From: Minisyncoccota bacterium | Lineage (GTDB): Bacteria; Patescibacteriota; Minisyncoccia; Phycocordibacterales; GWA1-40-21 | Reading direction: 5' to 3' | Length of the DNA stretch: 56,632 nt | Assembly: GCA_041663745.1 (NCBI GenBank) | Contig: JBAYMB010000001.1 | Location: forward strand, 1 to 56,632 | Position numbers and translations under genes: made by a program | Shown: positions 7,051 to 38,375 of the stretch, one piece after another | How positions within the stretch are numbered: position 1 is the stretch's first letter | Layout: each line of letters begins with the position of its first letter | Notes under the pieces: generated by a model | The model's database searches: none | Seen by the model: only the letters and a program-made list of their open reading frames with translations | Told to the model about the DNA's origin: nothing

Positions 7051-7057
7051 TAACCGC

Positions 7058-7918
7058 TTGCTTCCGAATTATCATTCTAGTGCAAAGATAAGAGCCTTTA
7101 CGCTCATAGAACTTCTTGTCGTCATAGCCATTGTTGGCATACTCTCTTCTGTCATATATACAAATATCACAGGACTTCGGGACAGAGCAAAGATAACTGC
7201 AGGGATTAGATTTGATTCTTCCACTCTTCACTCAATTGGGGATCAGTTGGTAGGAGAGTGGACGTTTGATTCTCCCAACTTGCCTCTCATAGACACTTCG
7301 GGATTTGGAAATACAGGAACTTGCACAGCTTGTCCTACATACGCCACTACTTCTGGATATAACAATAAAGGAGCATATAGTTTTGATGGAATAAATGATT
7401 ACATAAGAATCGCTGATTCGGATATTTTAAGAATGAACGGCACGTCAAATTTAACTATGTCTGCTTGGATAAAGATTTCTAATTTGGCAGATTCTGACGA
7501 ACAATTTATTGTTAGTAAATATGGTTATGTTGCTAATACAGGATATTCTTTGGAGGTTTTGAGCACTGGAGCCGTAAGGATGAATATAAATGGTGGGGCA
7601 AATTCAAAAACAACTGCTACGAAACCTATTATCGCCGGTGTCTGGAGCCATATTGTCGGAGAATTTTCCAATGGAAATACAATAAAAGTATATGTTAATG
7701 GCTCATTAATTCAAACATGGCCTATAACACAGACTACGCTGATAAGTAATAATGGTATTTTGGCAATAGGTAGTCCTTCAGACAATGCTGGAATTGATAA
7801 TTATTCTTTATCCGGTTTAATTGATGATGTTCGCATTTATTCCTCAGCCCTCTCTTCTTCTGACATCCAAAAACTATATGCTGAAGGGAAGGCAAGCCAC
7901 GAAGTAGTGGTAAAATAA
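7058..7918 (+). CDS. Prepilin-type N-terminal domain protein with LamG-like domain (pseudopilin paralog 2)
   Basis: ...AKIRA|FTLIELLVVIAIVGILSS and C-terminal LIDDVRIYSSALSSSDIQKLYAEGK. The track start is TTG-7058 with no ATG. The frame stays open upstream through the GA repeat to 7013. Confidence 0.75.
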   Translation: MLPNYHSSAKIRAFTLIELLVVIAIVGILSSVIYTNITGLRDRAKITAGIRFDSSTLHSIGDQLVGEWTFDSPNLPLIDTSGFGNTGTCTACPTYATTSGYNNKGAYSFDGINDYIRIADSDILRMNGTSNLTMSAWIKISNLADSDEQFIVSKYGYVANTGYSLEVLSTGAVRMNINGGANSKTTATKPIIAGVWSHIVGEFSNGNTIKVYVNGSLIQTWPITQTTLISNNGILAIGSPSDNAGIDNYSLSGLIDDVRIYSSALSSSDIQKLYAEGKASHEVVVK

Positions 7919-8012: not shown

Positions 8013-8093
8013 CTGTAAGTGATCACCAAAAACTGTTTTGTCCACAATACCCTTTATAATATTGTCAGATCGTGTTATCATATAGTCAATAAC

Positions 8094-8594
8094 ATGGTCA
8101 AAGAAACTTGCCAAAAAATTGACGAGAAGGCCTATAAAAATGCGGTTTTATACTTCATCAAATACTGCAATAATCAGTATCTGCATGCTACAAAGCTGAA
8201 TAAGCTGTTGTATTACCTTGATTTTATCTTTTTTAGAGATCATGGAAGACCTGTCACTGGTGACGTGTACATACACCAGGGTTACGGTCCTGTTCCATCA
8301 ACGATCGATGAGGTTCTTACAAAATTGAAGTCGGATAAGATAATTGATACAGAAGCGAAGCCGTATAATGGCGAGGAAATGATCAATTTTTTACTGAAAG
8401 ATGATTCTAAGTTTGACGAGTCGGTTTTCTCCTTGGAACAGAAAAAATTGTTGAAACAAATATGTGATGAGTTCTCTGGTTGGTCCACTGAAAAAATTGT
8501 CGCTCAAACACATCTTGAGGCGCCGTGGTTCTATTCAAAACCATATGAGATCGTAGACTATGCATATGCCCGCGATATAGATTTTTTTAAGTAA
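8094..8594 (+). CDS. Panacea-domain (DUF4065, SocA/PanA-like) putative antitoxin
   Basis: KLNKLLYYLDFIFFRDHGRPVTGDVYIHQGYGPVP matches the DUF4065 core as I remember it. Start taken at ATG-8094 rather than track GTG-8019. TGtTATCAT lies at 8073-8081. Confidence 0.65.
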   Translation: MVKETCQKIDEKAYKNAVLYFIKYCNNQYLHATKLNKLLYYLDFIFFRDHGRPVTGDVYIHQGYGPVPSTIDEVLTKLKSDKIIDTEAKPYNGEEMINFLLKDDSKFDESVFSLEQKKLLKQICDEFSGWSTEKIVAQTHLEAPWFYSKPYEIVDYAYARDIDFFK

Positions 8595-11523: not shown

Positions 11524-12123
11524 ATGCAGTGGGGAAAGATGGAAGCAGTCATCAACAAGCTCGGCGGGGAAGACGGTGTAGACCGTTTCCTCCGTGACGA
11601 ACTCGTGGTCTCTGTCCCCGTCCGCAGCTGGCGCGAAGAAGACGGCGTAATCTACTTCACCGTCACTTCAAACGGGAAGTCGGGCAAGGAGTGGATCAAA
11701 CACTTCGAGTCCAGGAAGATCAAGATCAGCGACTATGCCAAACAGCTCTTGCTGTCGAAAGACTTCAAGCCAAGCAAAAAGGGCACGGTCTCGCAGATTG
11801 CGCTCATCAAGGGAGAATCCTTTTCCGATGATGACCGCATCACGTCAAAGATTCGGAGAGAGGCCGACCGTCACAAGATGGAAAAGTCGAATGCCGAAGT
11901 TGCTTGCCTCATCCGCGACTTGTTCACGGACGAGGAGATCAAGGCAATGGGTCTTTACTGGATCATAACGATGCACGAACCCATCAAGGATTCTGACGGC
12001 GCTCCTCGCTTGCTCAGTATGAATCGGGACGGTGGTGGGCCGTGGTTCGACACGTACTACGACAGGTCTGGTTTCGGGTGGGGTCGTGAGAGCGGTTTTG
12101 CCTTCGTTGCTCCGCAAGTATAG
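11524..12123 (+). CDS. Hypothetical protein in a G+C-rich islet
   Basis: In-frame ATG-11524 preceded by AGGAAG. Track start TTG-11422 lies inside the stem-loop. Composition is markedly G+C-rich: the 60-nt line at 11581 has 38 G+C. Confidence 0.55.
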   Translation: MQWGKMEAVINKLGGEDGVDRFLRDELVVSVPVRSWREEDGVIYFTVTSNGKSGKEWIKHFESRKIKISDYAKQLLLSKDFKPSKKGTVSQIALIKGESFSDDDRITSKIRREADRHKMEKSNAEVACLIRDLFTDEEIKAMGLYWIITMHEPIKDSDGAPRLLSMNRDGGGPWFDTYYDRSGFGWGRESGFAFVAPQV

Positions 12124-12130
12124 TTAGTTC

Positions 12131-12169
12131 TTAACCCCATTCCGATTTATCGGAATGGGGTTAATTTTT
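12131..12169 (+). terminator. Strong rho-independent terminator
   Basis: 16-bp stem TTAACCCCATTCCGAT (12131-12146) / ATCGGAATGGGGTTAA (12149-12164), then T5. Confidence 0.8.
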
Positions 12170-12195
12170 GCATAAAAAATGATATAATGGCAGAA

Positions 12196-13872
12196 ATGCA
12201 TTTAGACACCAAACAGCTCAAAGACTTCCTCATAGACTCAGGGGTCATCACGCGAAGTGGATTCTCTGAGATAGAGGGAGATATAAAGAAAGGCAGATAC
12301 AAAGACTCTGCCGAAAAGGTGTTGGTGAGCCTCGGGAAGATCACGGAAGACGATCTGCGCAAAGCGGAATCATACTCTTTTGGGATTCCTTTTGTCGAGC
12401 TTAAAGGACATAAAATAGATCTTTCGATACTCTCGATCATCCCAGAGCCTATTTCCCGAAAGCATAATGTCATAGCTTTCAGCAGAATGAACGATTCAGT
12501 TGAAGTGGCTTTTCTTGATGTGAAAGATATTTCCTCAATTGAATTTTTGAAGGATAAGGGAATAAAGATCCTGCCGAGACTTACCGACACGGAGTCTATG
12601 CGATATGCACTTTTGCAATATCAGAAGCATTTGAAGACGGAGTTCGGGGATTTCATACAGAAGAACTCCTTGGAAGAGGGGGAGATAATAAAAGTAGTGG
12701 AGATGCTTGTGAAGCATGCACTTCTGCAGAACTCATCGGATATACATATAGAGTGCATGGAGGACAAGGTGGTCGTGAGATACAGGATAGCCGGGGTCTT
12801 GCATGATGCCATGATATTGCCCAAAGCCGCTGCGGCGAACATTGTCTCGAAGATAAGGTCACTGTCCAATTTGAAGACTACTGATATGCCTCAGGAAGGC
12901 AAGCTCAAGACGAAGATAGATGGGGAGGAGCTTTCTCTCCGAGTTTCGATCACACCTACGTATTTCGGGGAGAAGACCGTCATGAAGTTCTTGAAGGACA
13001 ATGTCGGAGGATATTCATTCCAATCACTCGGTCTTTTCGGAGAGAATCTTGAGAAGGTCCATGAGGTCATATCGGAAAGGAACGGAATGGTCCTTGTTGC
13101 AGGACCCAAGGGGTCCGGAAAGACCTCCACTTTGTATGCAATGCTTGAATCCCTGAACAATCCGAGCATTAGCATAGGGACAATTGAAGATCCAATAGAA
13201 TATCAGATGCCGAGAGTGAACCAGATGCAGGTCAAGGAGAAGGCAGGTTTGACCTTTGCTCATGGCTTGCGCTCCCTCGTCAAGCAGGATTCGGATGTGA
13301 TCATGGTTGGAGATATAGCCGACAGCGAGACTGCATCTTTGAGCGTCAGCGCCGCTTTAACAGGTCACTTCGTCCTTTCCGCCATAAATGCAAATTCGGC
13401 GCTCGGCGCCATTCAGAAGCTTTCCCAGATGAAGGTTGAGCCGTTCGCAGCCGCTTCAGCGGTGAAGCTTGTCGTGAGCCAGCGCCTTGTCAGGAGACTT
13501 TCCGATTCAAAGCAAAAGTACATTCTGTCCAAGTCGGAACTAGGAACGCTCTCAAAGATAGTTGACATGGAAAGGGTCCTGAAGATCCTGAAGGAGGAGA
13601 ACATCGTGGGGCAAAAGGACGATTGGTCCAAGATCCACTTTTTCAAGCCGAAGTCAGATAATGCGCACGACGCATATTCCGGAAAAGTCGCTATACACGA
13701 GGTAGTGAGGATTACTCCTGCCATAAGGGAGCTTTTGGTAAAGGGGGCTGGGCATAAGGAGATAGAGGCTGAGTCGAAAATGGAGGGGAACAGGTCTGCT
13801 ATCGAGGATGGCATGGTCAAATGCGCCATGGGCCTCACGACAGTCGATGAGGTCTTGAAATCGGAGTTCTAG
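12196..13872 (+). CDS. pilB: Type II secretion/type IV pilus assembly ATPase (GspE/PilB family)
   Basis: Walker A GPKGSGKTST, GspE-type Asp/His boxes and an N-terminal GSPII-like domain. The first ATG (12187) overlaps the -10 of TGaTATAAT (12180-12188), so ATG-12196, 7 nt after the -10, is preferred. Confidence 0.85.
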   Translation: MHLDTKQLKDFLIDSGVITRSGFSEIEGDIKKGRYKDSAEKVLVSLGKITEDDLRKAESYSFGIPFVELKGHKIDLSILSIIPEPISRKHNVIAFSRMNDSVEVAFLDVKDISSIEFLKDKGIKILPRLTDTESMRYALLQYQKHLKTEFGDFIQKNSLEEGEIIKVVEMLVKHALLQNSSDIHIECMEDKVVVRYRIAGVLHDAMILPKAAAANIVSKIRSLSNLKTTDMPQEGKLKTKIDGEELSLRVSITPTYFGEKTVMKFLKDNVGGYSFQSLGLFGENLEKVHEVISERNGMVLVAGPKGSGKTSTLYAMLESLNNPSISIGTIEDPIEYQMPRVNQMQVKEKAGLTFAHGLRSLVKQDSDVIMVGDIADSETASLSVSAALTGHFVLSAINANSALGAIQKLSQMKVEPFAAASAVKLVVSQRLVRRLSDSKQKYILSKSELGTLSKIVDMERVLKILKEENIVGQKDDWSKIHFFKPKSDNAHDAYSGKVAIHEVVRITPAIRELLVKGAGHKEIEAESKMEGNRSAIEDGMVKCAMGLTTVDEVLKSEF

Positions 13873-19298: not shown

Positions 19299-19682
19299 AT
19301 GCACAAAGATTTTGACAAATGGAACACAGAAAAGAAAAACCTCGAGATTCGAGAGAAGAAGATCAGATTTCATGAAAGGGAGATATGGTGGTGCTCAATC
19401 GGTACAAATATCGGCGATGAACAGGATGGAAAGAATCTTTTGTTTGAAAGGCCAGTGCTTGTTTTGAGAAAATTCAATGATAAGTTGCTTTGGGCGGTTC
19501 CCATGACTACAAAGGTAAAAGAAGGGACATATTATCGAATGCTTGATCACGATGGGGTCACTTTTTCCGTCATTCTTTCCCAGATACGCCTGTTAAGCGT
19601 CAAACGGCTACAAAGAAGAATACGAAAAATAAATGAAAACGACTTTCAAACAATAATAGACGGAATAAAAGGTCTGTTTTAG
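19299..19682 (+). CDS. PemK/MazF-like toxin-fold protein with no adjacent antitoxin gene
   Basis: REIWWCSIGTNIGDEQDGKNLLFERPVLVLRKF and SQIRLLSVKRL resemble the MazF/PemK core motifs. Confidence 0.55.
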   Translation: MHKDFDKWNTEKKNLEIREKKIRFHEREIWWCSIGTNIGDEQDGKNLLFERPVLVLRKFNDKLLWAVPMTTKVKEGTYYRMLDHDGVTFSVILSQIRLLSVKRLQRRIRKINENDFQTIIDGIKGLF

Positions 19683-21820: not shown

Positions 21821-21852
21821 GGGTGGCGTGCCATTAGGGCGCCACCTTTTTT
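21821..21852. terminator. Bidirectional terminator between convergent genes
   Basis: GGTGGCG (21822-21828) pairs with CGCCACC (21840-21846), then T6. It overlaps the stop of the minus-strand HAD gene. Confidence 0.65.
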
Positions 21853-22537
21853 ATATCAAATACTTCTCTATTTCTACGAGCAAAGACAGCTGAGGACAAT
21901 CAACATCAAGATTTTTTTCTTTCTGGTTCACCAAGATCGAATTTATTCCCAATTTCTTCGGTTCCATGTGATCTGACATCACTCTGTCTCCGATATACAA
22001 GAACTGGTCAGGTTTGAGACTAGGATATTTTTTCATCCATATCTTATATGCCGAACCGTCCGATTTTGAGACATCATCTTGAGTGAAAATATTATTGAAT
22101 AGACGGAGATCGAACCCAAGATGTCCAAGTTTTTCCTTTGTTATCTTCAGGTTTGAGCCGGTTATGATATCCAGATTGCCATACCTTTCCTTCAGTTTTT
22201 TGACGATGCTCAGTGTTTTTTCGTCAGGGCTCAAGAACTTCGCTATATCGGCCTTTTCAAGGGCCATTTGAACGACCTCTTTGGCATTTGGAACGCCAAG
22301 AACCTCCAGACTTTTGCTGCCGCTCAGTCCAGCCCCGTCCTTATACAGGTCTTTGAACATTTTTTTGGATTCCTCTATGGTCGTGTGCCTTTGCTCCGAT
22401 ATCTTCCTATATATGTATTCTTGTATAGTCTCATCGATCTCCGGAGATTTCGGAAAGAGCGTCTGGTCCAGATCGAAGCCTATGACCTTTATGTTTTTTT
22501 TATAGTCAAAATTCATATTAGTTTGATCTTCCGACAT
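21851..22537 (-). CDS. HAD-superfamily (subfamily IA-like) phosphatase, possible nucleotidase
   Basis: Motif I VIGFDLDQTLF, with motif III/IV ...YIGDRVMSD. Overlaps the upstream gene by 20 nt. Confidence 0.75.
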   Translation of the reverse strand: MSEDQTNMNFDYKKNIKVIGFDLDQTLFPKSPEIDETIQEYIYRKISEQRHTTIEESKKMFKDLYKDGAGLSGSKSLEVLGVPNAKEVVQMALEKADIAKFLSPDEKTLSIVKKLKERYGNLDIITGSNLKITKEKLGHLGFDLRLFNNIFTQDDVSKSDGSAYKIWMKKYPSLKPDQFLYIGDRVMSDHMEPKKLGINSILVNQKEKNLDVDCPQLSLLVEIEKYLI

Positions 22538-24926
22538 ATATTATCACGGATTCACCGAGATCGTTCCCCAGCTCTTTCTTGTATTGCGTCACGAGATAGT
22601 TCACAAGCCCTCTGTCTTTTTCCAGATTTTTTATGGAATGGTTCATGAACACTGCTGTGGCGTATATCTTTTCGCCATACACATTCGCTTGGAAGAATGC
22701 CAGCATGTCGGATTGCGGGTCGGTCTTGCCCGGAATATATTCGCCTATTATCGGGTTATTGTGCTTGCCGCCCTTTTTGACTAGATATTCTATGGCTTTA
22801 TTGAGTATGTTGACGCTGTTGTAATTTTCCAGGACGTCCAAAGTCCTGCTTTTCGGCCTCTCGTCGCTCTCCTTCGCCTGTTCTTGGAATATAGCGACGA
22901 TATTTTTCGGCCTTATTCCGCCTTTTCCTTTCAGATCATACGGTCCGCTGTCCATATTCACCTCACCGCAAGGTTTGGACGGTTCTGCGAGGATCTTCTT
23001 CGTCCTCTGCTCTTCGGACAGAAGCAGAATGTTTGCCCTGTTTGAGAGCATGAACATATCGCCGGATCTCAATCCCAAAGCTTCCCGAAGGGGAGCGACA
23101 TATGCATCATGCAGTCCGAAGATGTTTTCCGGATATGCATTCACCGCGTTATGCGCTCTTGCTATGTGGAAAGAATGTAATTTCCCGTTCTCAACGAAAA
23201 ATATGTCGTGGGTCAGGCAGGGGTCATGGGAAAATTTGAGCTTCTTGGTCGCGGTATCGATGTAGAAGGACATGTCCTTCACGGGATCGAACCTTTGGAC
23301 TATGGTCGCCAGATCCTTGTTCTTCAACAAGGTCTTTTTGGTCGTTTCCATCTGATCAAAGCCGAAATATGCCCTTGTCCTCTCGCCGTATGTATATGTC
23401 CCGTCGTTGTCCTTCCTCATCAATTGGCTCTTATATGCTTCCCTTATTTCTTCTCCCGTTTGATTTCCCTGCCTGTATATTTCCGGGAATATCTTCAATG
23501 CGGAATCCACATCCCTGTATATGGCAAGCACGGAAGCGGACCTCGCCAGTCCTTTCCACTCATCCCCGTGATTTTCCGTTATGCCCTCGGTGTATATCTT
23601 CCTCAATACGGATTTATGGGTATCCAAGAACGAATCGCTCTCCGAAACGAGGAAGGGGAGCTTTGTCTTGTTTATCTTGAATATGGGGATGAAGTCCTGA
23701 ATGAAGGAATAGCCGAATTTTGCCGCTATCCCGGCCCTGCTTGTCTGGGTTCCGACATCCAGCCTGTGCAGGAAATCCATCTCATATCTCTCAAATCTGT
23801 CCAATTCGGCTATCTTCTCAAGGACAACGGTGACGCTCTCTGATATGAGCTCAAAAATCTCCTCGCAGGCGTCAAAAGCCATGCACATGACGCGCACGCC
23901 TTCCTTGCCATTGTTTATCTTGTAGTAGTATTTTTTGTCTATTATGGTCTTAATCTGGTTTTCCACGGGAATCTCTCTCGTACCAAGAATATTATTTTCT
24001 TTCACGAAAGGCTTCGTCTCAATGCTGTTTGAGAGCTCGATGCTTGCTCGTCCGAGCTCTGCGCCGAGCACGAGCTGTTCAATATGGGAGAAGGAATCTT
24101 TTTCTTTGCCCAAGAATTTCAAAAGGGTGTATCCGACAATGAAAGGATTCTCCGATTTTATGAAAACATCCCCCTTTTTTGTCCTTATATCGAGCCTTAT
24201 GTACTTTCCTTCGGCGACCGATGCTTTGAACGGGCAGTCGAAAGTCTCGTCTTTTCCGGAGAGTATGATCTTCGGGGGCTCAAGATGCCTGTATTCCTTC
24301 GGGTCTATGTTTATCGCGGTCTTTTTCTCCGTCTTAATCGAAGCTACCAATGAAATGAGCTTGTTCAGGGAGTCATAGTATATCTTGTCTTTTTTGTTAA
24401 TCTCCTCAAGGAGAGCTATGATCTTCGGATCGGTTTTCGGCTTGAGCCAGTTCAGGTAGTTTTCTATTATCTTTTGACTGGCCGCATTTTTGTGCATGAA
24501 CACAGGCAGAACTATGATCTCATCCTTGAAAATATTGAATATGTTCTTGCTCAGGTTGGGGTAATATGGCGAGGCGGCGATACCTTCTTTGATGTAATTT
24601 CCTTCCTTGTTCTCCACGAATCCGTTCTGCATGGCCTGCAGAAGGTTCGTGCTCGGGGCGAAGGTCACGGTCTCCTCGGAGAAAAGTATGAGGTATCTTT
24701 GGGTCGGATGGGCGAGGCAGTTCAATATCATCCTTTCAACGCCATCTCGGCTTACGATGAGCGACCCGAGGACCGCCACATTCTTCCTGTTGTTCTCCTC
24801 TATGCTGCTCAAAACCTCACCGGCCGACGTGGTGTTCGTGCATATGCCGATAATCCCTTGCGCTCCTTCCTCGGGCGTCAGGAGTATCGCTTCTACCAAT
24901 GGAAATTTTGTTTTTATGTCCTTCAT
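22518..24926 (-). CDS. 802-aa fusion: MtrA/DUF4346-like N-terminal domain + unknown middle region + thymidylate-synthase (ThyA)-fold domain
   Basis: Residues ~50-140 (GVERMILNCLAHPTQRYLILFSEE...LLQAMQNG...) parallel MtrA [24 protein letters not shown]...IEALHQNG. Residues ~510-635 (YGERTRAYFGFDQ...DPCLTHDIFFVENGKLHSFHIARAHNAVNAYPENIFGL...GDMFML) parallel ThyA YGKQWR...DQ...[38 protein letters not shown]...GDFVWT. Confidence 0.7.
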   Translation of the reverse strand: MKDIKTKFPLVEAILLTPEEGAQGIIGICTNTTSAGEVLSSIEENNRKNVAVLGSLIVSRDGVERMILNCLAHPTQRYLILFSEETVTFAPSTNLLQAMQNGFVENKEGNYIKEGIAASPYYPNLSKNIFNIFKDEIIVLPVFMHKNAASQKIIENYLNWLKPKTDPKIIALLEEINKKDKIYYDSLNKLISLVASIKTEKKTAINIDPKEYRHLEPPKIILSGKDETFDCPFKASVAEGKYIRLDIRTKKGDVFIKSENPFIVGYTLLKFLGKEKDSFSHIEQLVLGAELGRASIELSNSIETKPFVKENNILGTREIPVENQIKTIIDKKYYYKINNGKEGVRVMCMAFDACEEIFELISESVTVVLEKIAELDRFERYEMDFLHRLDVGTQTSRAGIAAKFGYSFIQDFIPIFKINKTKLPFLVSESDSFLDTHKSVLRKIYTEGITENHGDEWKGLARSASVLAIYRDVDSALKIFPEIYRQGNQTGEEIREAYKSQLMRKDNDGTYTYGERTRAYFGFDQMETTKKTLLKNKDLATIVQRFDPVKDMSFYIDTATKKLKFSHDPCLTHDIFFVENGKLHSFHIARAHNAVNAYPENIFGLHDAYVAPLREALGLRSGDMFMLSNRANILLLSEEQRTKKILAEPSKPCGEVNMDSGPYDLKGKGGIRPKNIVAIFQEQAKESDERPKSRTLDVLENYNSVNILNKAIEYLVKKGGKHNNPIIGEYIPGKTDPQSDMLAFFQANVYGEKIYATAVFMNHSIKNLEKDRGLVNYLVTQYKKELGNDLGESVIIYVGRSN

Positions 24927-24930
24927 TGTT

Positions 24931-25809
24931 TTATTTCCAGTTCTTGCTACTCCAGGAATTCGGCAGATATTCCGATATTGAGTGTTTGTCCATTTTTTCA
25001 GAATCCATGGAGAAACAATGTATGTTCGGGTTCAAATTGAATTTTGCCGATATCTCAGCGATGAATTGGCGGCAGATTCCGCACATATTGCAAGGCTCAT
25101 CCGCATACTTTGTTGAAACGAGAGCGATATCAGTCATCTCCGCATTCCCATCCATCATCGCAGACAGCATTGCGCACATCTCCGAGTGTAGGCCAAGCCT
25201 TTTGTCCGGAGTGGAGTATTGCCCGGCAAAATACAGAGTGCCGTTTTTTGTGAGCACTGCCGTGCCGTATCCAGAAGCTTTGTCGGATGTCGGGAAGTTC
25301 CTCGTCACTCCTTCGATCGCATATTTTTTCAGAGTTCTCGTCTTATCTTCCTCGTCTCTGACCTTGACCGCGATCTTGTTCTTTGAAACTTCAGAATCGT
25401 TCGTCATGGAAAGGATGTTCATCTTCGGGTCATAGTATTTTGAAAGCTCCGTGACATCCTTTACAGATAGCAGGGTCTTTCCTTCAGAATCTATCACCTC
25501 GTATGATATCGGCACTCCGGTTCTTTTATAGTGATCGATCATTATCTCAACGGTCTGAGGCAAGACTGAGACACTGTCTTCCACAAGCGTTATCACTTTG
25601 TTTATTTTGTAGTCTCTTGAAGCTGAGGCCAATGCCAAGGATGCCTGTTCTGAGCTTATGTTCAAAAGATGCGTATCGGAATCAACCGAGCCTGCAATAT
25701 ATGAGTTTCCCTTTTCCGATATGGCAATAGAGGATGTCTTTTTACCTTCCTTTTTTTTGCTGACGCACAGATCCAAGGCCTCTTTTAGGGTTTTTGCGTG
25801 ATTTTGCAT
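24931..25809 (-). CDS. cdd: Two-domain cytidine deaminase (degenerate N-terminal domain, catalytic C-terminal domain)
   Basis: C-terminal half has HSEMCAM (H-A-E type) and PCNMCGICRQFIAE (PCxxC) zinc motifs. The N-terminal half has SEQASLA and LPQTVEIM at the equivalent positions, with no ligands. Confidence 0.75.
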   Translation of the reverse strand: MQNHAKTLKEALDLCVSKKKEGKKTSSIAISEKGNSYIAGSVDSDTHLLNISSEQASLALASASRDYKINKVITLVEDSVSVLPQTVEIMIDHYKRTGVPISYEVIDSEGKTLLSVKDVTELSKYYDPKMNILSMTNDSEVSKNKIAVKVRDEEDKTRTLKKYAIEGVTRNFPTSDKASGYGTAVLTKNGTLYFAGQYSTPDKRLGLHSEMCAMLSAMMDGNAEMTDIALVSTKYADEPCNMCGICRQFIAEISAKFNLNPNIHCFSMDSEKMDKHSISEYLPNSWSSKNWK

Positions 25810-25812
25810 ATC

Positions 25813-26718
25813 CTAGAATATGTCTATATTGCTCCTTAATCTGCTGATGTTCAATTTCGTATTTGACCAGTCATAGTGCAGAACCTTTTTCAAAAAGTCG
25901 TTGAAAAGATGGATCTTGTCCCTCTCAAGCCTCGGGTACATTTTCTCTGATCTCTTGCTTGAAAGCCGTATGGTAGGTCTGAAAGGCATGGGGAAGGCGT
26001 AATACGGCACCAGGCTGGTATTTTTTTGAGGTTCGACAAGTATCACATTTATCGGTTCATTCAAATACTCGGTGGCGTAATCTATCCTGTGGCTTCCATC
26101 GCAGACTATGTAGAAATCATGCGGGCCGTTGTATTGCACGCCGTAATTTATGATGGGTGCGTTTGAATTGAAGATGTCCAAGTGCCTTATGGCGCTCACC
26201 TCGTCTATGTTGAAGTTCTGAAGATACCTGTTTGATATCTTGTGCAGATATTCCTGAGCGTCCTTCACGCAGTATCCTTCGAACTTTTCCACGAGCTTAT
26301 CAAGATCGACATAGCCGTTCTTTAGGTCATACGTATGTTTTTCCACTATTGGTGGTATCATGTGATACGAGTCTCTACCTTCCCAGTCGTATCCTATGCC
26401 TCCTTCAAGCTGATGGACTCTCATCTTCTCTCCCTTGAGGAACTCATCCACTGTTTTTATTATATCAAGCTGGTTCAGATATATCGTCGGCTGGGGAGAG
26501 AACAAAGTCTCCTTCTTTTTGCCGGAAAGTATGGTCGGGGAATCGCACATCGATTTCGGGGGATAGACGGTGGTCAAAGTGAACTTGGCATTCTCATACG
26601 GCTTCAATTTTTCCCCCTTTTTGTCATATATACCTCTAAAGGTGAGTGTTCTTAACACCTTTTTCAATTCCTCAAAGTCTATTTTGGATTTTAACGTCAG
26701 TTTGTGGTTCATGGCCAA
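25813..26718 (-). CDS. ParB/sulfiredoxin-fold (DGxHR) domain protein of unknown function
   Basis: HDFYIVCDGSHRIDYATEYLNEPINVILV matches the ParB N-terminal/Srx core (x-DG-x-HR). First gene of the minus-strand operon. Confidence 0.55.
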   Translation of the reverse strand: MAMNHKLTLKSKIDFEELKKVLRTLTFRGIYDKKGEKLKPYENAKFTLTTVYPPKSMCDSPTILSGKKKETLFSPQPTIYLNQLDIIKTVDEFLKGEKMRVHQLEGGIGYDWEGRDSYHMIPPIVEKHTYDLKNGYVDLDKLVEKFEGYCVKDAQEYLHKISNRYLQNFNIDEVSAIRHLDIFNSNAPIINYGVQYNGPHDFYIVCDGSHRIDYATEYLNEPINVILVEPQKNTSLVPYYAFPMPFRPTIRLSSKRSEKMYPRLERDKIHLFNDFLKKVLHYDWSNTKLNISRLRSNIDIF

Positions 26719-26821
26719 AAAATTATCCTAGCAACCTGCCTTTGAAATTCATACTATAATTATATCACTTATTAATCAATAGTGCAGATGTTCGATTTTG
26801 ATGATATTCTAGGCACCATAT

Positions 26822-27292
26822 ATGGGAAATATCGATCAAAAACAGGTGAAATACGTCCTAGAGACGGACAAGTTCATGAAACTGGCCAGGGAATATGCTG
26901 AAAGGTATTCGACCGACCGACTGCAGCCTGTCGGTTCTGTCATTGTCAAGAACGGAGAGGTCGTGGGGGGAGGGGCGAACAAGATGCCCATAAACAACCA
27001 CAGGTTCCAATTGATGCATGCTCGGGGATTTTGTATACGTCGAATTCTACATATTCCATCTGGAAAGCTATACTGGCTCTGTCCCGGATGCGGCCAGCCG
27101 AGAAATCATTCGGAAAGAAGGGCTATTAGAGATGCTGTGAAGAGGGGTATGGATATAGATGGAGCGGACCTATACCTTTGGGGACATTTTCAAGTGTGCG
27201 AGACATGTCGGGATGCTATAATGAAGGCTCGGATAAAGAATGTCTTCTTGCTTGAGAATAGCAATGTTCTGTTTAAAAGGAAAAATACATAA
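26822..27292 (+). CDS. dCMP (deoxycytidylate) deaminase-family zinc deaminase
   Basis: HSERRAIRDA (HxE) and QVCETCRDAIMKA (CxxC) motifs; ~156 aa, ComEB/dCMP-deaminase-like. Confidence 0.75.
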   Translation: MGNIDQKQVKYVLETDKFMKLAREYAERYSTDRLQPVGSVIVKNGEVVGGGANKMPINNHRFQLMHARGFCIRRILHIPSGKLYWLCPGCGQPRNHSERRAIRDAVKRGMDIDGADLYLWGHFQVCETCRDAIMKARIKNVFLLENSNVLFKRKNT

Positions 27293-27294
27293 CA

Positions 27295-27717
27295 ATGAAA
27301 CTAAAGATCAAAAAACTTCATTCTGATGCAAAGATTCCTCACTATGCTCACCCGGGCGATGTGGGTTTAGATCTTTTTTCGTTGGAAGATTACAATTTGA
27401 AACCAATGGAAAGAAAAGTTTTTGATATCGGATTTGCTTTGGAGTTTGAGATTGGCTATGCGGCAATAGTAAAAGACAAGAGCTCTTTGCCAAATAAGGC
27501 TGGGATACATACGATGGGCGGGGTATATGATGCGGGCTATCGCGGGGAATATAATGTCCAACTCATAAATCTCGGACAGGAAACATATCATATATCAAAA
27601 GGGGATAAGATAGCGCAACTCGTCATATATCCTGTTATCATAGCCGAGCTTGAGGAAACTGACGATCTGTCTGATTCCAGCCGAGGCCACGGAAGATTTG
27701 GAAGCACGGGGAAATGA
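27295..27717 (+). CDS. dut: dUTP diphosphatase
   Basis: AHPGDVGLDL, GVYDAGYRGE, IAQLVIYPV and SSRGHGRFGSTGK dUTPase motifs. Lies 2 nt after the deaminase gene. Confidence 0.9.
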   Translation: MKLKIKKLHSDAKIPHYAHPGDVGLDLFSLEDYNLKPMERKVFDIGFALEFEIGYAAIVKDKSSLPNKAGIHTMGGVYDAGYRGEYNVQLINLGQETYHISKGDKIAQLVIYPVIIAELEETDDLSDSSRGHGRFGSTGK

Positions 27718-27755: not shown

Positions 27756-28028
27756 ATGAATACAATAACAAAAACGAGCATTAACAACATCATCCCTTTC
27801 AAGGATTTTCGTGTGAATTCCGAAAAATATATAAAAGCCATTTCTAACGGAATGTCCTTTGTAGTGGTTAAGAGATCAAAGCCGATCTTTCGTCTTGAAC
27901 CTATGGGGGAGAGCTGGGAGACCCTGATAGATTTCACTGATGGGGGCAAGAAGAGAGGAATTCCAGTAGACGAGCTTTTGGAACATATCAAGAATTTTAA
28001 GAAAAAACAAAAGATAAATGACAGATAA
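27756..28028 (+). CDS. Phd/YefM-like antitoxin
   Basis: 90 aa. The N-terminal IPFKDFRVNSEKYIKAISNGMSFVVVKRSKPIFRL pattern is typical of Phd/YefM. Overlaps the toxin gene by 11 nt. Confidence 0.6.
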   Translation: MNTITKTSINNIIPFKDFRVNSEKYIKAISNGMSFVVVKRSKPIFRLEPMGESWETLIDFTDGGKKRGIPVDELLEHIKNFKKKQKINDR

Positions 28029-28263
28029 GATTGAGAAATTTCTTTTCAAACTATCTGCCAAAGAACTGGAATTTGTAGAGAATGTTCTTTTAAAGATAAG
28101 TAGTGGTAACCATATAGGGCTGAATGTCAAAAAACTGGAAGGACAATCAGATATCTTTAGGGTGAAAAAAGGGAGATTTAGGATAATTTTTGAGATGGAT
28201 AAATCTCACATTGAGATCATCGATGTCGGTAGAAGGAATGAAAAGACATACAGAGATTTTTAA
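28018..28263 (+). CDS. RelE/ParE-family toxin
   Basis: KKLEGQSDIFRVKKGRFRIIFEMDKSHIEIIDVGRRNEKTY matches the RelE/StbE C-terminal pattern. Confidence 0.7.
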   Translation: MTDKIEKFLFKLSAKELEFVENVLLKISSGNHIGLNVKKLEGQSDIFRVKKGRFRIIFEMDKSHIEIIDVGRRNEKTYRDF

Positions 28264-34871: not shown

Positions 34872-37800
34872 ATGACCGAAAAACAGCAAAAACCGGTGAC
34901 AAAAAGCAAATTTGCCGAAAGGGAGGAGGAGATATTGCAATTCTGGCAAGAGAGGGAGATATTCAAGAAAACTTTGGAAAAACCTTCAAAGGGCGAGTTT
35001 GTCTTCTATGACGGACCTCCTTTCGCGACAGGTCTTCCTCACTACGGCCATATCCTTGCCGGCACAATGAAGGATTACATCGGCAGATATCAGACGATGA
35101 AGGGCAAGCACGTTCCTCGCCGATGGGGCTGGGACACCCACGGAATTCCCGTGGAAGTCATTGTTGAAAAGGAGATCGGGCTCAAATCAAAAAAGGACGT
35201 TGAAGATTTTGGCTTGGAAAAGTTCAATGACATAGCCAGGTCAAAGGTCATGACATACGCCGATGATTGGAAGAAAATAATCCCTAGGCTCGGGAGATTT
35301 GTGGACATGGAGAACGACTACAAGACGATGAACTCGGCCTTCACCGAAAGCGTCTGGTGGGTCTTCAAGGAATTGCACAAGAAAGGCCTGGTATATGAAG
35401 GCTTCAAATCAATGCACATATGCCCTCATTGCGGTACGACCCTATCAAATTTTGAAGTAGGTCAGGGATATAAAGACATTACAGATCTGTCTGTCACGGT
35501 AAAATTCGAGCTTGTGGATGAGCCTAATACATTTGTCTTGGCTTGGACGACGACCCCATGGACCCTTCCAGGGAACGTGGCTCTTGCAGTGAACCCAAAA
35601 TTCGACTATGTGGAAATAGAGAGGAAGGATGAAGGAAGGTTCATACTGGCGAAAGATCTCTTGAAAAAGGTTTTCAAGGATGAAAAGTATTCCATAGTCA
35701 AGGAGATGAAGGGCGCTGAGCTTGTAGGCAGATCATACAATCCGCTTTTCTCATACTATGACAAGATAGACATCAAAAACAAGGAAAACGGCTTCAAGAT
35801 ATATCCGGCTGATTTCGTCACAATGGAAGACGGCACCGGAGTGGTGCATATCGCCCCTGCATTCGGCGAGGACGATCTGAAGCTTGGAAATGAGAAGAAG
35901 CTTCCCTTCATCCAGCATGTCGGGATGGACGGAAGGTTCAGGCCAGAGGTCACGGATTTTGCCGGCCAAAAGGTCAAACCAATAGAAGATCCCCAAGCTG
36001 CGGACATTGAGATCATAAAATTCTTGGCCAAGAAGGGGACTTTGTTTGAAAAGGAGAAGTTCATCCACTCATATCCTCATTGCTACAGATGCGACACCCC
36101 GCTTTTGAACTACGCCACGAGCTCATGGTTCGTTGAGATAGCGAAATTCAAGGACAAGCTCATTGCGGCCAACAAAAAGATAAGATGGGTCCCAAGCGAT
36201 CTTGGGGAAGGCAGATTCGGAAAGCTTCTGGAGTCTGCTCCTGATTGGTCCATCTCAAGAACGAGATTTTGGGGCGCATCGATGCCAATATGGAGATGCC
36301 AGAACGAGAAATGCAATGAGAAGGAGTTCATCGGATCGGTCGGGGAGATAAAGGAAAGGACGAAAAGCAAGAACAAGTTCCTGGTCGTCAGGCACGGAGA
36401 GTCGGAGAGCAATCTCACGGGAATTCTGAGCTCCGATCCGAAGTCAGTTAACCATCTGACTGACAAAGGCAGGGAACAAGCTGTCCTTGCCGCAAAGAAC
36501 CTCATGCACAAGGTGGATGTCATATACTGCTCTCCTTTCATGAGGACAAAAGAGACCGCCGAGATCATCGCAGAAACAATCGGATATCCGAAGGACAAGA
36601 TCGTATACGATGAAAGGCTTCATGAGATATATGGGGGGGAATTTGACGGCAAGAACGACAAGGAATATCAGGCATTCTTCGGGAACAGGGAGGAAAAGTT
36701 CACAAAAACCCCTAAAGGAGGGGAGAACTACCAAGTAGTCATCAAAAGGATGACCGAGTTCGTATATGAGACTGACGCAAAAAATGAAGGAAAGAACATC
36801 CTGATCGTCTCCCACAATACCCCTATCTGGCTCATGTTCTGCGGAACTGCGGGGCTTGATAAGAAACAGGCTTTGAAGACAAGGAAGCAGGGAGAGGCTT
36901 TTATAGAGAATTCCGAGATCAAAGAGCTTGATTTTGCCCCCATTCCGCACAACAGGAACTATGAGCTTGACCTCCATCGCCCGTTCATCGATGAGATAAA
37001 TCTCAAATGCAAATGTGGCGGTGTGATGAAGCGCATCCCCGAGGTCTTTGATTGCTGGTTCGAGTCCGGGTCCATGCCATACGGTGAGATGCACTATCCT
37101 TTCGAGAATACGGACATATTCGACCCGAAGAAGCATCTCAGATTTCCTGCAGACTTCATTGCCGAGGGAATAGACCAGACTCGCGGATGGTTCTACTCCA
37201 TGCTTGTCGTCTCAGTCGCGCTTTTCGGCGAGTCTTCATACAAGAATGTCATTGCAAACGGGATTGTCCTTGCGGAAGACGGGTTGAAAATGGCAAAGAG
37301 ACTGAAAAATTACACCGATCCTGTCATGCTTGCCGAGAAATACAGCGCTGATGCCATGCGATACTATCTTTTGTCATCTCCAGGCGTGCGGGCGGAAGAC
37401 CTGAAATTCTCCGATCGTGGAGTCGATGAGACATTGAAAAAAGTGATCATGAGGCTCCAAAACGTCTTCTCTTTCTTTGAGATGTATGGCGGATTTGATG
37501 TGGCAGTGAAGGAGAATGCCTCAAAGAACATTTTGGACAAGTGGATTCTCGCAAGACTAGAAGAGACTGCTTTTCAAATAACAAAAGCGACTGATAACTA
37601 TGAACTGGACAGGGCGACAAGGCCGATAGCGGACCTTGTGGACGACATCTCTACGTGGTTCCTGAGGAGATCGAGAGACAGATTTAAGTCCGAGGACGCG
37701 GAGGACAGGCACTCGGCTATGCTGACGACTCGAACCGTGATACTCGAGCTTTCCAAGCTCATGGCCCCTTCGATGCCTTTTCTTGCCGAGGACCTATACT

Positions 37801-38375
37801 TGAAAATAACGGGCGGGATGGGGAAGGAGAGCGTTCATTTGGAAGATTGGCCGGACCATCTTGTGAAAGAGCTTTCGGATGAAAAGACCAAGATGATAGA
37901 AACGATGAATGAAGTGAGGAAGATCGTATCTTTGGGACTTGAGGCAAGGGTGAAGGCGGGTATAAAAGTCAGACAGCCCCTGTCCAGTTTGAAGGTCAAA
38001 AGCGAGAAGTTCGAAGGAAAGAAGGAATACCTAGATCTCATCAGGGACGAGGTCAATGTAAAAGAGGTCGTATGCGATGCATCGATTGCAAACGAGATCG
38101 AGCTTGATGTGAACATCACGCCTATATTAAAAGATGAGGGGATCATGCGTGATATCGTCAGAGCCATTCAGGACTTGAGGAAGAACAAGAAGCTCAATCC
38201 GAGTGACCTTGTAGATCTTGTAGTGGATACCGATGATGCAGGTAAGAGGATATTCGAGAAATTCACAGAAGAGATATCAAAGACGACTGGTCTCAAAGAA
38301 ATAAGTTTTGAACATCTTGATAGCGGGGAGATCTTGGAGCTTGAGGGGATGAGAGCTAGGGTGGAGATAGCATAG
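34872..38375 (+). CDS. ileS: Isoleucyl-tRNA synthetase (type 2-like) with an inserted histidine-phosphatase (PGAM-like) domain
   Basis: PHYGHILAG (HIGH), CP1 editing domain (TTTPWTLPGN), GLKMAKRLKNY (KMSKS-like). Residues ~498-697 form an insertion carrying LVVRHGESESN and ILIVSHNTPIW. Confidence 0.9.
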   Translation: MTEKQQKPVTKSKFAEREEEILQFWQEREIFKKTLEKPSKGEFVFYDGPPFATGLPHYGHILAGTMKDYIGRYQTMKGKHVPRRWGWDTHGIPVEVIVEKEIGLKSKKDVEDFGLEKFNDIARSKVMTYADDWKKIIPRLGRFVDMENDYKTMNSAFTESVWWVFKELHKKGLVYEGFKSMHICPHCGTTLSNFEVGQGYKDITDLSVTVKFELVDEPNTFVLAWTTTPWTLPGNVALAVNPKFDYVEIERKDEGRFILAKDLLKKVFKDEKYSIVKEMKGAELVGRSYNPLFSYYDKIDIKNKENGFKIYPADFVTMEDGTGVVHIAPAFGEDDLKLGNEKKLPFIQHVGMDGRFRPEVTDFAGQKVKPIEDPQAADIEIIKFLAKKGTLFEKEKFIHSYPHCYRCDTPLLNYATSSWFVEIAKFKDKLIAANKKIRWVPSDLGEGRFGKLLESAPDWSISRTRFWGASMPIWRCQNEKCNEKEFIGSVGEIKERTKSKNKFLVVRHGESESNLTGILSSDPKSVNHLTDKGREQAVLAAKNLMHKVDVIYCSPFMRTKETAEIIAETIGYPKDKIVYDERLHEIYGGEFDGKNDKEYQAFFGNREEKFTKTPKGGENYQVVIKRMTEFVYETDAKNEGKNILIVSHNTPIWLMFCGTAGLDKKQALKTRKQGEAFIENSEIKELDFAPIPHNRNYELDLHRPFIDEINLKCKCGGVMKRIPEVFDCWFESGSMPYGEMHYPFENTDIFDPKKHLRFPADFIAEGIDQTRGWFYSMLVVSVALFGESSYKNVIANGIVLAEDGLKMAKRLKNYTDPVMLAEKYSADAMRYYLLSSPGVRAEDLKFSDRGVDETLKKVIMRLQNVFSFFEMYGGFDVAVKENASKNILDKWILARLEETAFQITKATDNYELDRATRPIADLVDDISTWFLRRSRDRFKSEDAEDRHSAMLTTRTVILELSKLMAPSMPFLAEDLYLKITGGMGKESVHLEDWPDHLVKELSDEKTKMIETMNEVRKIVSLGLEARVKAGIKVRQPLSSLKVKSEKFEGKKEYLDLIRDEVNVKEVVCDASIANEIELDVNITPILKDEGIMRDIVRAIQDLRKNKKLNPSDLVDLVVDTDDAGKRIFEKFTEEISKTTGLKEISFEHLDSGEILELEGMRARVEIA

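Follow-up and report, generated by a model that had tools for sequence, protein, structure and literature searches.

A stretch of 56,632 nucleotides from a Minisyncoccota bacterium (contig JBAYMB010000001.1; hereafter, the window) contains four consecutive minus-strand genes that, judging from their sequences and with a probability of about one half, form a single module for the conversion of cytosine and uracil deoxynucleotides into thymidylate (dTMP). They encode a ParB/sulfiredoxin (Srx)-like protein related to the Pfam family Parb-CE, a tandem protein of the cytidine deaminase (CDA) fold, an 802-residue protein with a thymidylate synthase (ThyA) fold and a phosphatase of the haloacid dehalogenase (HAD) type. 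The same four genes occur together in bacteria of the candidate phyla radiation (CPR) and in DPANN (Diapherotrites, Parvarchaeota, Aenigmarchaeota, Nanoarchaeota and Nanohaloarchaeota) archaea, and they probably represent the thymidylate-synthesizing system of their carriers, by a route so far uncharacterized.

Thymidylate synthesis is essential and a classical drug target and, to our knowledge, ThyA and ThyX are the only types of thymidylate synthase recognized. The first-pass annotation of this DNA, made from the sequence alone, knew of no described operon of this composition, and the searchable literature agrees: queries on ParB-CE, PRTase-CE, DUF4346, MtrA together with thymidylate synthase in Patescibacteria, and organisms lacking both thyA and thyX, returned no description of the system. 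Nor was any paper found on the ThyA-DUF4346 protein family, the function of Parb-CE or the four-gene module.

Results

Conservation of the four-gene module

One genome per species was scanned, with partner genes located by tblastn using the window proteins, and 54 loci were collected (43 bacterial and 11 from DPANN archaea). All four genes are present in 30 of the 31 bacterial and nine of the ten archaeal loci with enough flanking sequence (39/41 in total), and the HAD gene follows the gene for the 802-residue protein in 37/38 bacterial and 11/11 archaeal loci with downstream flank. Gene order is constant except in one archaeal locus, L049, where the 802-residue protein gene comes first, followed by the HAD, ParB-like and CDA-like genes; this permutation argues for a shared function rather than frozen synteny. 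The neighbourhood is kept in both the CPR and the DPANN archaea, a comparison that the first-pass annotation had proposed. Several taxon labels of the metagenome-assembled genomes (MAGs) are unreliable: in L022, L048, L044 and many 'Saccharibacteria' loci, the labels (Gammaproteobacteria, Methanosarcinales, Saccharibacteria) clash with CPR- or DPANN-like flanks and are probably artefacts of binning or automatic labelling.

A 'hypothetical protein' from a Candidatus Paceibacterota MAG has exactly the sequence of the 802-residue protein. More than 120 full-length homologues, with identities of 49-81%, come from the CPR without exception, while the 11 archaeal loci (Woesearchaeota, Nanoarchaeia, Iainarchaeum and unclassified) encode homologues with 40-45% identity over the full length. 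The ParB-like protein has more than 240 homologues (54-88% identity), likewise all from the CPR. Between bacteria and archaea it retains 48-55% identity, as against about 35% for ribosomal protein L11 in the same loci, from which it follows that the module crossed the domain boundary by transfer. Among bacterial loci, the module has diverged about as much as NusG and L11 have, suggesting vertical inheritance within the bacterial clade.

The genes found nearby, whose counts are inflated by loci related by descent, point to dUMP/dTMP metabolism. Serine hydroxymethyltransferase (SHMT) lies near the module in 14 of the 43 bacterial loci, against about one expected by chance, and dUTPase in 16/43 bacterial and 1/11 archaeal loci. 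A NUDIX-like gene stands beside the HAD gene in ten of the 43 bacterial loci, FolD is a neighbour in at least one locus, and the thymidylate kinase gene Tmk adjoins the module in one bacterial locus, L038. Single archaeal loci are flanked by DCD (dCTP deaminase), NDK or MazG, and NUDIX or MazG genes are inserted within the modules of L047 and L052. No thyA, thyX, folA or tdk gene was seen in the readable span within 10 kb on either side of the module copies.

The first-pass annotation had treated six genes as one cluster, adding to the four a divergently transcribed dCMP deaminase and dUTPase. The conserved unit is smaller, consisting of the four minus-strand genes. A canonical dCMP deaminase gene is near the module in none of the 43 other bacterial and two of the 11 archaeal loci, being missing even from the locus of an 81%-identical relative; it is a lineage-specific neighbour outside the conserved core, and the dUTPase is a frequent but facultative one.

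The wider setting is one of housekeeping genes, with nusG or secE-nusG-rplK near the module in 28/43 bacterial loci (among L008-L043). In two Woesearchaeota loci (L046 13128-14477, L061 10860-12823) a NusG/Spt5-L11 pair adjoins the module, so that the same neighbourhood is found in both domains despite transfer. In some CPR, the ParB-like protein bears an extra N-terminal domain of about 300 residues without a family match (L062; P0245). In L062, where these features lie at 6001-7869 and 12040-12456, the HAD gene is followed by a gene of the nucleoside 2-deoxyribosyltransferase family (PF05014), a family that includes dNMP/hydroxymethyl-CMP N-glycosidases.

Domains and active-site residues of the 802-residue protein

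The central domain of this protein matches the methanogen-type thymidylate synthase model TIGR03283 (9e-15, residues 432-607) with 54.7 bits against a cut-off of 174.55. An AlphaFold2 model built from 54 homologues (predicted local distance difference test, pLDDT, 84.6) was compared with the PDB by Foldseek, and more than 400 chains were matched at E <= 0.001; all of the 50 top matches listed have the ThyA fold, with probability 1.0 and E-values down to 3.8e-9. The flavin-dependent dCMP hydroxylase AfhB (9iqu, 9iqc) ranks first, a position that may partly reflect its small size, followed by thymidylate synthases and the CMP hydroxymethylase MilA.

Alignment with E. coli ThyA by hhalign gave a gapless register, R-x2-N-x5-P-x-N corresponding to R166...P175-x-N177, and the motifs were confirmed by translation. 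A search with the ThyA-domain profile against PDB sequences returned matches of E about 1 only, with the cysteine misplaced, and was not used for residue mapping. The residue equivalences and their conservation are listed in Table 1. In classical ThyA, Arg126 and Arg127 are contributed by the other subunit of the homodimer; their position in the catalytic domain reads Leu-Ala in the window protein, one arginine being retained in most homologues. Asn177 denotes a uracil substrate in the ThyA superfamily (PMC13326640). The first-pass annotation's expectation of a ThyA fold with a catalytic cysteine is thus borne out, and its proposal that the enzyme works on C5 of a uracil nucleotide agrees with the invariant nucleophilic cysteine and the asparagine at the base-specificity position: the ThyA-fold domain should act at this carbon.

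The N-terminal domain resembles MtrA, the corrinoid subunit of tetrahydromethanopterin S-methyltransferase (2e-5, residues 46-144; 24.7 bits for the whole protein against a cut-off of 25, and 27.5 bits for the isolated domain), and Pfam MtrA matches are obtained for 27 of 30 family members. In an alignment with the PDB entry 8q3v (E = 0.0034), MtrA His84, the lower axial corrinoid ligand, is paired with the invariant Phe89. MtrA-type corrinoid-dependent methyl transfer was rejected on account of this replacement, and neither genes for the membrane Mtr complex (mtrB-H) nor a C-terminal anchor were found in the loci examined. Common to both proteins are a sequence-detectable Rossmann-like domain and the association with a pterin-dependent enzyme. 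In six CPR loci (for example L043, 17409-17999), a gene for a cob(I)alamin adenosyltransferase of the PduO type is found no more than about 5 kb from the module; it is probably unrelated to the module because the corrinoid-ligand histidine is missing.

In the middle region (residues 149-424), for which a profile search against PDB sequences gave no match, residues 149-325 are without a detectable relative, and the remainder weakly resembles the DUF4346 domain of an approximately 500-residue phage protein encoded at L070 (residues 414-499; E = 0.0018 by hhalign). Motifs common to the window protein and L070, respectively, are YYYKI/GYIKI, HRxDVGxQ/HAMYVGTQ and FIQD/YVQD. Pfam names this domain 'PterinBD-DUF4346'. 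Domain 1 is, in turn, homologous to the N-terminus of the phage protein (hhalign E = 3.6e-5), and a Micrarchaeota homologue matches both MtrA and PF14251.

The C-terminal domain aligns weakly with residues 111-162 of E. coli ThyA, from helix G through the catalytic hairpin (hhalign E = 0.009), and, also weakly but in the same register, with the phage ThyA domain (E = 0.069); its beta-beta-alpha-beta secondary structure fits a half-ThyA. In this alignment, the catalytic cysteine is replaced by Leu742 and Arg126/127 by the invariant His722-Asn723-Asn724. Residues 641-802 gave no match in a profile search against PDB sequences, and comparison of five segments of the protein with one another by hhalign detected no significant internal repeat. 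The domain may be a degenerate half-ThyA standing in for the second subunit of the homodimer.

Partner proteins

The identities that the first-pass annotation gave to the partner genes hold at the level of fold or superfamily. The CDA-like protein matches dCMP_cyt_deam_1 in its C-terminal half only (residues 181-255), and its best PDB match is the B. subtilis CDA (5.6e-6). The zinc ligands and catalytic glutamate (His208, Glu210, Cys243 and Cys246) are at least 95% conserved among 48 homologues, again in this half only, the N-terminal half being degenerate and devoid of zinc ligands. Scores for all NCBIfam CDA models fall far under their cut-offs. Asn42 and Glu44, which bind ribose in the B. 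subtilis enzyme, are replaced by conserved Tyr198 and Ser199 (Gln197-Tyr198-Ser199), a loss in view of which the substrate may be a nucleotide.

The HAD protein matches HAD_2 (1.6e-11; 45 bits, cut-off 23.8) and possesses complete motifs I-IV (D15, D17 and T19 of DxDxT; T119/S121; K151; D177 and D182), all at least 95% conserved. Its best NCBIfam matches are the pyrimidine 5'-nucleotidase types TIGR02253, TIGR01993 and YjjG, all sub-threshold; the equivalog cut-offs are not reached for TIGR01993 (44 versus 142.9 bits) or YjjG (29 versus 159.9 bits).

The ParB-like protein matches Parb-CE (PF24392, 1.4e-5; 25.6 bits, cut-off 23) over profile positions 86-141 of 147 only, and intermediate ParB-CE homologues match the whole profile. 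Its CDGSHR motif is of the ParB/sulfiredoxin type, with C204, D205, G206, H208 and R209 invariant in 47 sequences. For the AlphaFold2 model (pLDDT 84, pTM 0.86), Foldseek gave no significant match to either the PDB or BFVD; the local matches span about 30 residues, all at E > 0.5, and comprise sulfiredoxin 3cyi, ParB-N 5k5d and viral ParB/Srx proteins, centred on the DGxHR strand-helix. With typical Parb-CE proteins of about 200 residues it shares the motifs PxQxY, PPI(V/I)E, CDG(M/S)HR and PYYA(F/Y)P, unlike them having about 100 extra residues. Its profile retrieves only 46 clusters among 1.84 billion representatives, and these include a fusion of ParB-CE with dCMP deaminase, shorter DPANN versions and typical Parb-CE proteins. 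Features of chromosome partitioning, found with ParB itself, are wanting: there is no match to a helix-turn-helix domain, no parS context and no ParA gene in any locus. A role as a substitute for thymidylate kinase was considered and rejected, since a Tmk gene stands beside the module in L038. None of the ParB-like, CDA-like and HAD proteins has a match in PHROGs.

Relatives outside the CPR and DPANN archaea

Related proteins in other genomes combine the same domains, recurrently with the same kinds of partner. A Micrarchaeota locus encodes ParB-CE, HAD, a 791-residue MtrA + DUF4346 + ThyA-like protein and dCTP deaminase. On a terminase-bearing phage contig, a 488-residue MtrA-like + ThyA + DUF4346 protein is directly followed by ParB-CE and, on the 287-kb jumbo-phage contig L070, genes for HAD, ParB-CE, dCMP deaminase and a 500-residue ThyA-DUF4346 protein abut on one strand. 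More than 200 proteins of about 490 residues are homologous to the latter; they are labelled 'thymidylate synthase' in the cultured bacteria Thermodesulforhabdus norvegica, Desulfacinum infernum and D. hydrothermale, and are further found in MAGs of Syntrophobacterales, Desulfobacterales, Synergistaceae and Nitrospinae. T. norvegica has the gene order dCMP deaminase, ThyA-DUF4346, HAD, and an 8.2-Mb bacterial genome (L073) has dCMP deaminase, HAD, ParB-CE, ThyA-DUF4346. Given these carriers, the link that the first-pass annotation drew between the cluster and minimal nucleotide biosynthesis cannot be upheld.

The motif R-x-H-N, in which Asp169 is replaced by Asn (D169N), is present in at least 90% of the 490-residue family. 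Among 26 metagenomic loci of this family, inspected over 2.5 kb on each side and with BLAST and hidden Markov model searches in agreement, deaminase and HAD accompany the enzyme in seven, ParB-CE in two, all three in one and none in 16. Partners are thus recurrent but facultative in this family and fixed in the subfamily of about 800 residues from CPR and DPANN. A dCMP deaminase takes the place of the CDA-like protein in L070 and L073, and the L070 HAD has no detectable similarity to that of the window. As far as the comparison extends, namely to the deaminases and the L070 HAD, the partners are non-orthologous, and recruitment of the same activities has taken place more than once.

The 802-residue protein and its relatives form a rearranged, enlarged and distinct subfamily of the annotated ThyA-DUF4346 family. 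Both types have the MtrA-like N-terminal domain, a ThyA domain with the R-x-H-N signature (E = 1.4e-8 between them) and DUF4346. However, DUF4346 follows the ThyA domain in the shorter proteins (including phage L064 and L070) and precedes it in the 802-residue protein, which has, in addition, about 180 extra residues (149-325) and the putative C-terminal half-ThyA.

Viral contigs scanned with the phage 488-residue protein and the CPR ParB-like profile yielded no matches, whereas the typical ParB-CE profile did. In a cultured-phage collection there was no ParB-CE homologue, and the phage fusion protein gave ThyA-domain matches only. On viral contigs, ParB-CE was also seen near a phosphoribosyltransferase (with a weak PRTase-CE match) and dCMP deaminase, or beside a SLOG (YAcAr) protein and a clamp loader (L069 3826-4533, L067 7594-7968), and Pfam holds sibling '-CE' families. 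At L065 (127-9624), a typical ParB-CE gene within a defence island has on one side a Qat system (KAP NTPase, QatB, QueC-like, TatD) and on the other genes for a PNP_UDP-NACHT STAND protein and a fusion of a P-loop dNMP kinase with dCTP deaminase.

In T. norvegica (L072 3289-6427) and in the related contigs L074-L078, genes for NuoE-like, NuoF-like (Complex1_51K) and 2Fe-2S/4Fe-4S ferredoxin-like proteins lie directly upstream of, and co-directional with, those for dCMP deaminase, ThyA-DUF4346 and HAD. These could possibly serve as an electron-input partner for a reductive step.

Gene layout and other features of the window

All six open reading frames (ORFs) of the first-pass annotation were found where it had placed them, together with the gaps of 3 nt (25810-25812) and 4 nt (24927-24930) in the operon. 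An overlap of 20 nt before the HAD gene was an artefact of taking the longest ORF: the HAD start at 22516, which is the call in this contig and in relatives, leaves a spacing of 1 nt. For the ParB-CE-like gene the most likely start is the ATG at 26712, matching the identical database protein and homologues. A divergent intergenic stretch does separate the operon from the dCMP deaminase gene, measuring 109 bp rather than the approximate 100 bp given before. A scan for promoters and terminators in this region and the operon returned weak sigma-70-like matches only, and no terminator-like sites on the minus strand within the operon.

Table 1. Positions in the window of the module genes, the domains and aligned residues of the 802-residue protein, and adjacent features
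Feature	Position	Strand	Remarks
ParB-CE-like protein, 299 aa	25813-26712	-	operon gene 1; longest ORF from TTG 26718 (301 aa)
Tandem cytidine-deaminase-fold protein, 292 aa	24931-25809	-	C-terminal half catalytic
802-residue protein, domain 1, aa 1-148	24483-24926	-	MtrA-like, Rossmann-type
802-residue protein, middle, aa 149-424	23655-24482	-	helical/beta part and DUF4346-like (PF14251) subdomain, about aa 326-424, nt 23655-23951
802-residue protein, catalytic methanogen-type ThyA-fold domain, aa 425 to about 690	22857-23654	-	TIGR03283, model, Foldseek
His567 = E. coli Leu143	23226-23228	-	at least 90% conserved in 54 CPR sequences
Cys570 = E. coli Cys146 (nucleophile)	23217-23219	-	HDPCLTHD; invariant in 54 CPR and in 29 CPR + DPANN sequences
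Leu571 = E. coli His147		-	invariant in 29 CPR + DPANN sequences
Arg590 = E. coli Arg166 (phosphate-binding)	23157-23159	-	invariant in 29 CPR + DPANN sequences
Asn593 = E. coli Asp169	23148-23150	-	invariant in 29 CPR + DPANN sequences
Pro599 = E. coli Pro175		-	invariant in 29 CPR + DPANN sequences
Asn601 = E. coli Asn177	23124-23126	-	invariant in 29 CPR + DPANN sequences
802-residue protein, C-terminal domain, aa 695-802	22521-22844	-	probable degenerate second half-ThyA repeat
HAD-IA-type phosphatase, 221 aa	21851-22516	-	last operon gene; longest ORF reaches 22537
Divergent intergenic region, 109 bp	26713-26821	.	between ParB-CE-like and dCMP deaminase genes
ComEB/dCMP-deaminase-type zinc deaminase, 156 aa	26822-27292	+	dCMP_cyt_deam_1 1.8e-17
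Trimeric dUTPase, 140 aa	27295-27717	+	3e-26; TIGR00576 127 bits, cut-off 102.6 (equivalog threshold passed)
NUDIX-like protein, 206 aa	21184-21804	+	convergent with HAD; NUDIX 7.3e-4, under cut-off; Nudix box imperfect by eye

The NUDIX-like protein is a possible accessory dNTP pyrophosphohydrolase. Directly after the dUTPase gene, at 27756-28263, are two overlapping small ORFs (90 and 81 residues) of toxin-antitoxin-like appearance with no family match on record. The window is otherwise ordinary CPR housekeeping DNA, including polA, nusA, trigger factor, secE-nusG-rplK, several aminoacyl-tRNA synthetases, recO, ssb and efp. Its isoleucyl-tRNA synthetase (1167 residues, 34872-38375, plus strand) has a histidine-phosphatase domain (His_Phos_1, PF00300) inserted between the halves of the catalytic core, likewise present in the relatives L001 and L007. 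Four type-IV-pilin-like proteins combine an N-terminal methylation motif with fused Laminin_G_3/concanavalin-like lectin domains (2370-3197, 7058-7918, 47391-48197 and 48194-48988, plus strand), and genes for a PemK-family toxin (19299-19682) and a SocA/Panacea antitoxin-domain protein (8019-8594) were also noted.

Discussion

A proposed route to dTMP

In the scheme that we favour, the deaminase would make the uracil nucleotide by converting dCMP or deoxycytidine to dUMP or deoxyuridine. Cys570 would then attack C6 of dUMP and C5 would receive a methylene unit, the one-carbon (C1) donor being methylene-tetrahydrofolate supplied by SHMT. The fused MtrA-like and DUF4346-like domains recur with pterin-dependent enzymes and, since the pterin-binding Asp169 is an asparagine here, they may deal with the cofactor or with reduction in another way than classical ThyA does. 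The C-terminal half-ThyA might replace the second subunit of the homodimer. Least certain are the roles of the other two partners: ParB-CE might be a phosphotransferase or a protein that binds or hydrolyses (deoxy)nucleoside triphosphates of cytosine or uracil, and HAD might be a pyrimidine nucleotidase. Together they could feed or balance the dCMP/dUMP pool, for example by converting dCTP or dCDP to dCMP. This balancing role, modelled on that of T4 gp56, is our preferred guess, given that ParB is a CTP-binding fold and that ParB-CE repeatedly accompanies cytosine deaminases.

With classical ThyA (E. coli, EC 2.1.1.45), the protein has in common the fold, the Pro-Cys nucleophile motif and equivalents of Arg166, Asn177 and Tyr94, and the frequent SHMT neighbour suggests the same C1 source. 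It differs in showing about 16-20% identity, in the replacements Asp169 to Asn, His147 to Leu and Leu143 to His, and in the loss of the Arg126/Arg127 pair from the catalytic domain. Whereas the classical enzyme is a homodimer of 264-residue subunits, here the protein has four parts and obligatory partner genes. The closest family is the methanogen type (TIGR03283; Methanobacterium virus PhiF1 ORF59, about 210 residues), with a similarly short ThyA core and the motifs Y-[ST]-YG-x-R, P-C-L and R-[SA]-H, but this is a stand-alone domain that keeps Asp169. Since the PhiF1 enzyme has a glutamate at position 143, the 'water-exclusion' rule for Leu143 was set aside as a predictor of the product in the present case. 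Fusion or linkage of thymidylate synthase to a second pterin-handling function follows the same logic as in the protozoan bifunctional dihydrofolate reductase (DHFR)-thymidylate synthase and phage T4 td-frd; in place of DHFR, to which it has no homology, the 802-residue protein has the MtrA-like and DUF4346 domains.

Several observations count against dTMP as the product. The 802-residue protein has no PF00303 match, and no curated thymidylate synthase model reaches its cut-off. The pterin-binding Asp169, a classical feature of folate-dependent ThyA, has given way to the invariant Asn593; in the classical enzyme of L. casei, little dTMP synthesis is left when the equivalent D221 is substituted. 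His567 stands where classical ThyA has the water-excluding Leu143. The phosphatase and the ParB/Srx-like protein would be superfluous for a plain thymidylate synthase, and a nucleotidase would counteract the supply of dTTP. The highest-ranking structural matches, 9iqu and 9iqc, are D169N enzymes that make 5-hydroxy-dCMP. D169N is, moreover, the signature of the phage flavin-dependent 5-hydroxy-dCMP synthases, and a non-hydrophobic residue at position 143 accompanies non-methyl products (PMC13326640).

We nevertheless favour dTMP, in view of the cultured free-living carriers, the stand-alone enzymes of about 490 residues, the housekeeping neighbourhood and the Tmk gene in one locus; that the shorter enzyme is often without partners is expected of a housekeeping enzyme. 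That the chemistry or the product is new, in the sense of a novel multi-enzyme C5 modification of deoxyuridylate, is a tentative proposition, of which a modified base makes up the minor share. The larger share falls to a third mechanistic type of thymidylate synthesis, which would unite a ThyA-fold cysteine enzyme devoid of the pterin-binding aspartate with MtrA/DUF4346 cofactor domains, a ParB/Srx-like NTP-dependent protein and a phosphatase, and which might be independent of DHFR.

Alternative explanations

The first-pass annotation had offered two readings, synthesis or salvage of dTMP and a phage-like pathway to a C5-modified pyrimidine; the former is preferred here, and the latter appears less likely in the light of the cultured free-living carriers, the SHMT neighbour and Tmk in L038. 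On this second reading, which we judge improbable, thymine would be replaced or supplemented by a C5-modified uracil (5-hydroxymethyl-dU, 5-hydroxy-dU or a derivative), with the CDA-like protein as deaminase, the ThyA-like protein as hydroxymethylase or hydroxylase, ParB-CE as kinase and HAD as dTMPase. The Bacillus phages SPO1 and phi-e possess a dCMP deaminase, a dUMP hydroxymethylase, a modified-dNMP kinase and a dTMP nucleotidase, and the four activities map one-to-one onto this classical set. The phosphatase would also be better explained, as excluding the canonical nucleotide. The resemblance to the SPO1/phi-e hydroxymethyluracil pathway, and to the T4 set of gp56 dCTPase-dUTPase, dCMP deaminase and dNMP kinase, extends to the types of activity (C-to-U deaminase, ThyA-fold enzyme, phosphotransfer or NTPase protein, nucleotidase); the module partners, however, have no sequence relationship to those phage proteins, and the context here is cellular and housekeeping.

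The occurrence of the same four parts in the 287-kb phage contig, and of the ThyA-DUF4346 and ParB-CE pair in the second phage contig, fits a modified base, as does the movement of the module between CPR and DPANN indicated by the identities of the ParB-like protein and L11. Yet no phage in the cultured collection searched carries the module, the partners lack PHROG matches, inspection of the flanks revealed no glycosyl-, amino-acyl- or other hypermodification genes, and no literature was found that connects hydroxymethyluracil with CPR or DPANN. The enzyme itself can be argued both ways. D169N with a polar residue 143 is characteristic of non-methylating ThyA homologues (PMC13326640), and the best structural matches are dCMP hydroxylases: the flavin-dependent 5-hydroxy-dCMP synthases (phage HY126 AfhB, 9iqu/9iqc; RB69 gp48) reach a target-normalized template modelling (TM) score of 0.75 and have D169N. 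These enzymes, however, have Asp177, denoting a cytosine substrate, and Glu143, where the 802-residue protein has Asn and His, and they need O2 and no folate, whereas SHMT is frequent beside the 802-residue protein gene; this linkage speaks against a folate-independent hydroxylase, and Tmk beside the module in L038 does not favour a modified base either. Free-living bacteria in culture and the 8.2-Mb genome, furthermore, carry the D169N family of about 490 residues, and a wholesale replacement of thymine in them would probably have been noticed; 16 of the 26 loci of this family are without partner genes.

No more probable is a salvage loop at the nucleoside level, corresponding to the self-contained salvage of the first-pass annotation, in which scavenged cytosine nucleosides or nucleotides would be turned into dTMP: HAD would dephosphorylate dCMP or CMP, the CDA-like protein would deaminate the nucleoside, the ParB/Srx-like protein would serve as (deoxy)uridine kinase and the ThyA-like enzyme would methylate dUMP. 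CPR and DPANN rely on scavenged nucleotides, a general circumstance that suits this loop, and their deaminase belongs to the nucleoside (CDA) branch rather than the dCMP branch; the ribose-binding Asn and Glu of nucleoside deaminases are not conserved in it, however. The phage, T. norvegica and 8.2-Mb versions use a dCMP-type deaminase, which makes a nucleoside detour needless, and yet HAD is kept there, and the canonical dCMP deaminase of the window would render the loop redundant. The best sub-threshold matches of HAD are pyrimidine 5'-nucleotidases, in keeping with its assigned step. For the kinase step, small-molecule phosphotransferases of the ParB/Srx fold do exist (sulfiredoxin and the archaeal serine kinase SerK), but kinase activity is not supported for any ParB-CE protein.

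Far less probable than either is an anti-phage system that would alter the dCTP and dUTP pools during infection. One typical ParB-CE gene does lie in a defence island (QatABCD, PNP-NACHT STAND, DNMK-dCTP-deaminase fusion), and the dCMP deaminase of the window weakly matches the NCBIfam model for the anti-phage dCTP deaminase (E = 0.0014). The module, in contrast, stands in a conserved housekeeping setting beside secE-nusG-rplK, aminoacyl-tRNA synthetases and SHMT, its divergence among bacterial loci is on a par with that of NusG and L11, suggesting vertical inheritance, and no sensor or effector genes are nearby. Least probable of all is the chance adjacency of unrelated genes: CPR genomes are gene-dense and short gaps are common, but for the four-gene core this is effectively refuted by co-occurrence in 39/41 loci over two domains, the permuted order, non-orthologous recurrence and domain fusion, so that it still applies only to the dCMP deaminase, a neighbour essentially in this genome alone.

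Conclusions

The carriers of this system are a sizeable set, widely scattered in phylogeny, comprising CPR bacteria, DPANN archaea, sulfate reducers, Synergistaceae and phages. Their ThyA-fold enzyme is without the residue that classical enzymes need for the use of folate, is fused to two domains associated with pterin enzymes, and recurs in company with genes for a deaminase, a phosphatase and a ParB/Srx-like protein. The cultured carriers Desulfacinum and Thermodesulforhabdus make the question of its product testable at the bench. If the module is the sole source of dTMP in its carriers, metabolic reconstructions of CPR and DPANN, in which the protein is labelled 'hypothetical' or simply 'thymidylate synthase', miss a system of four proteins, and a functional context would be available for the first time for the Parb-CE and DUF4346 families. 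Should the product be something other than dTMP, the module would be the first cellular counterpart of the base-replacement pathways of phages.

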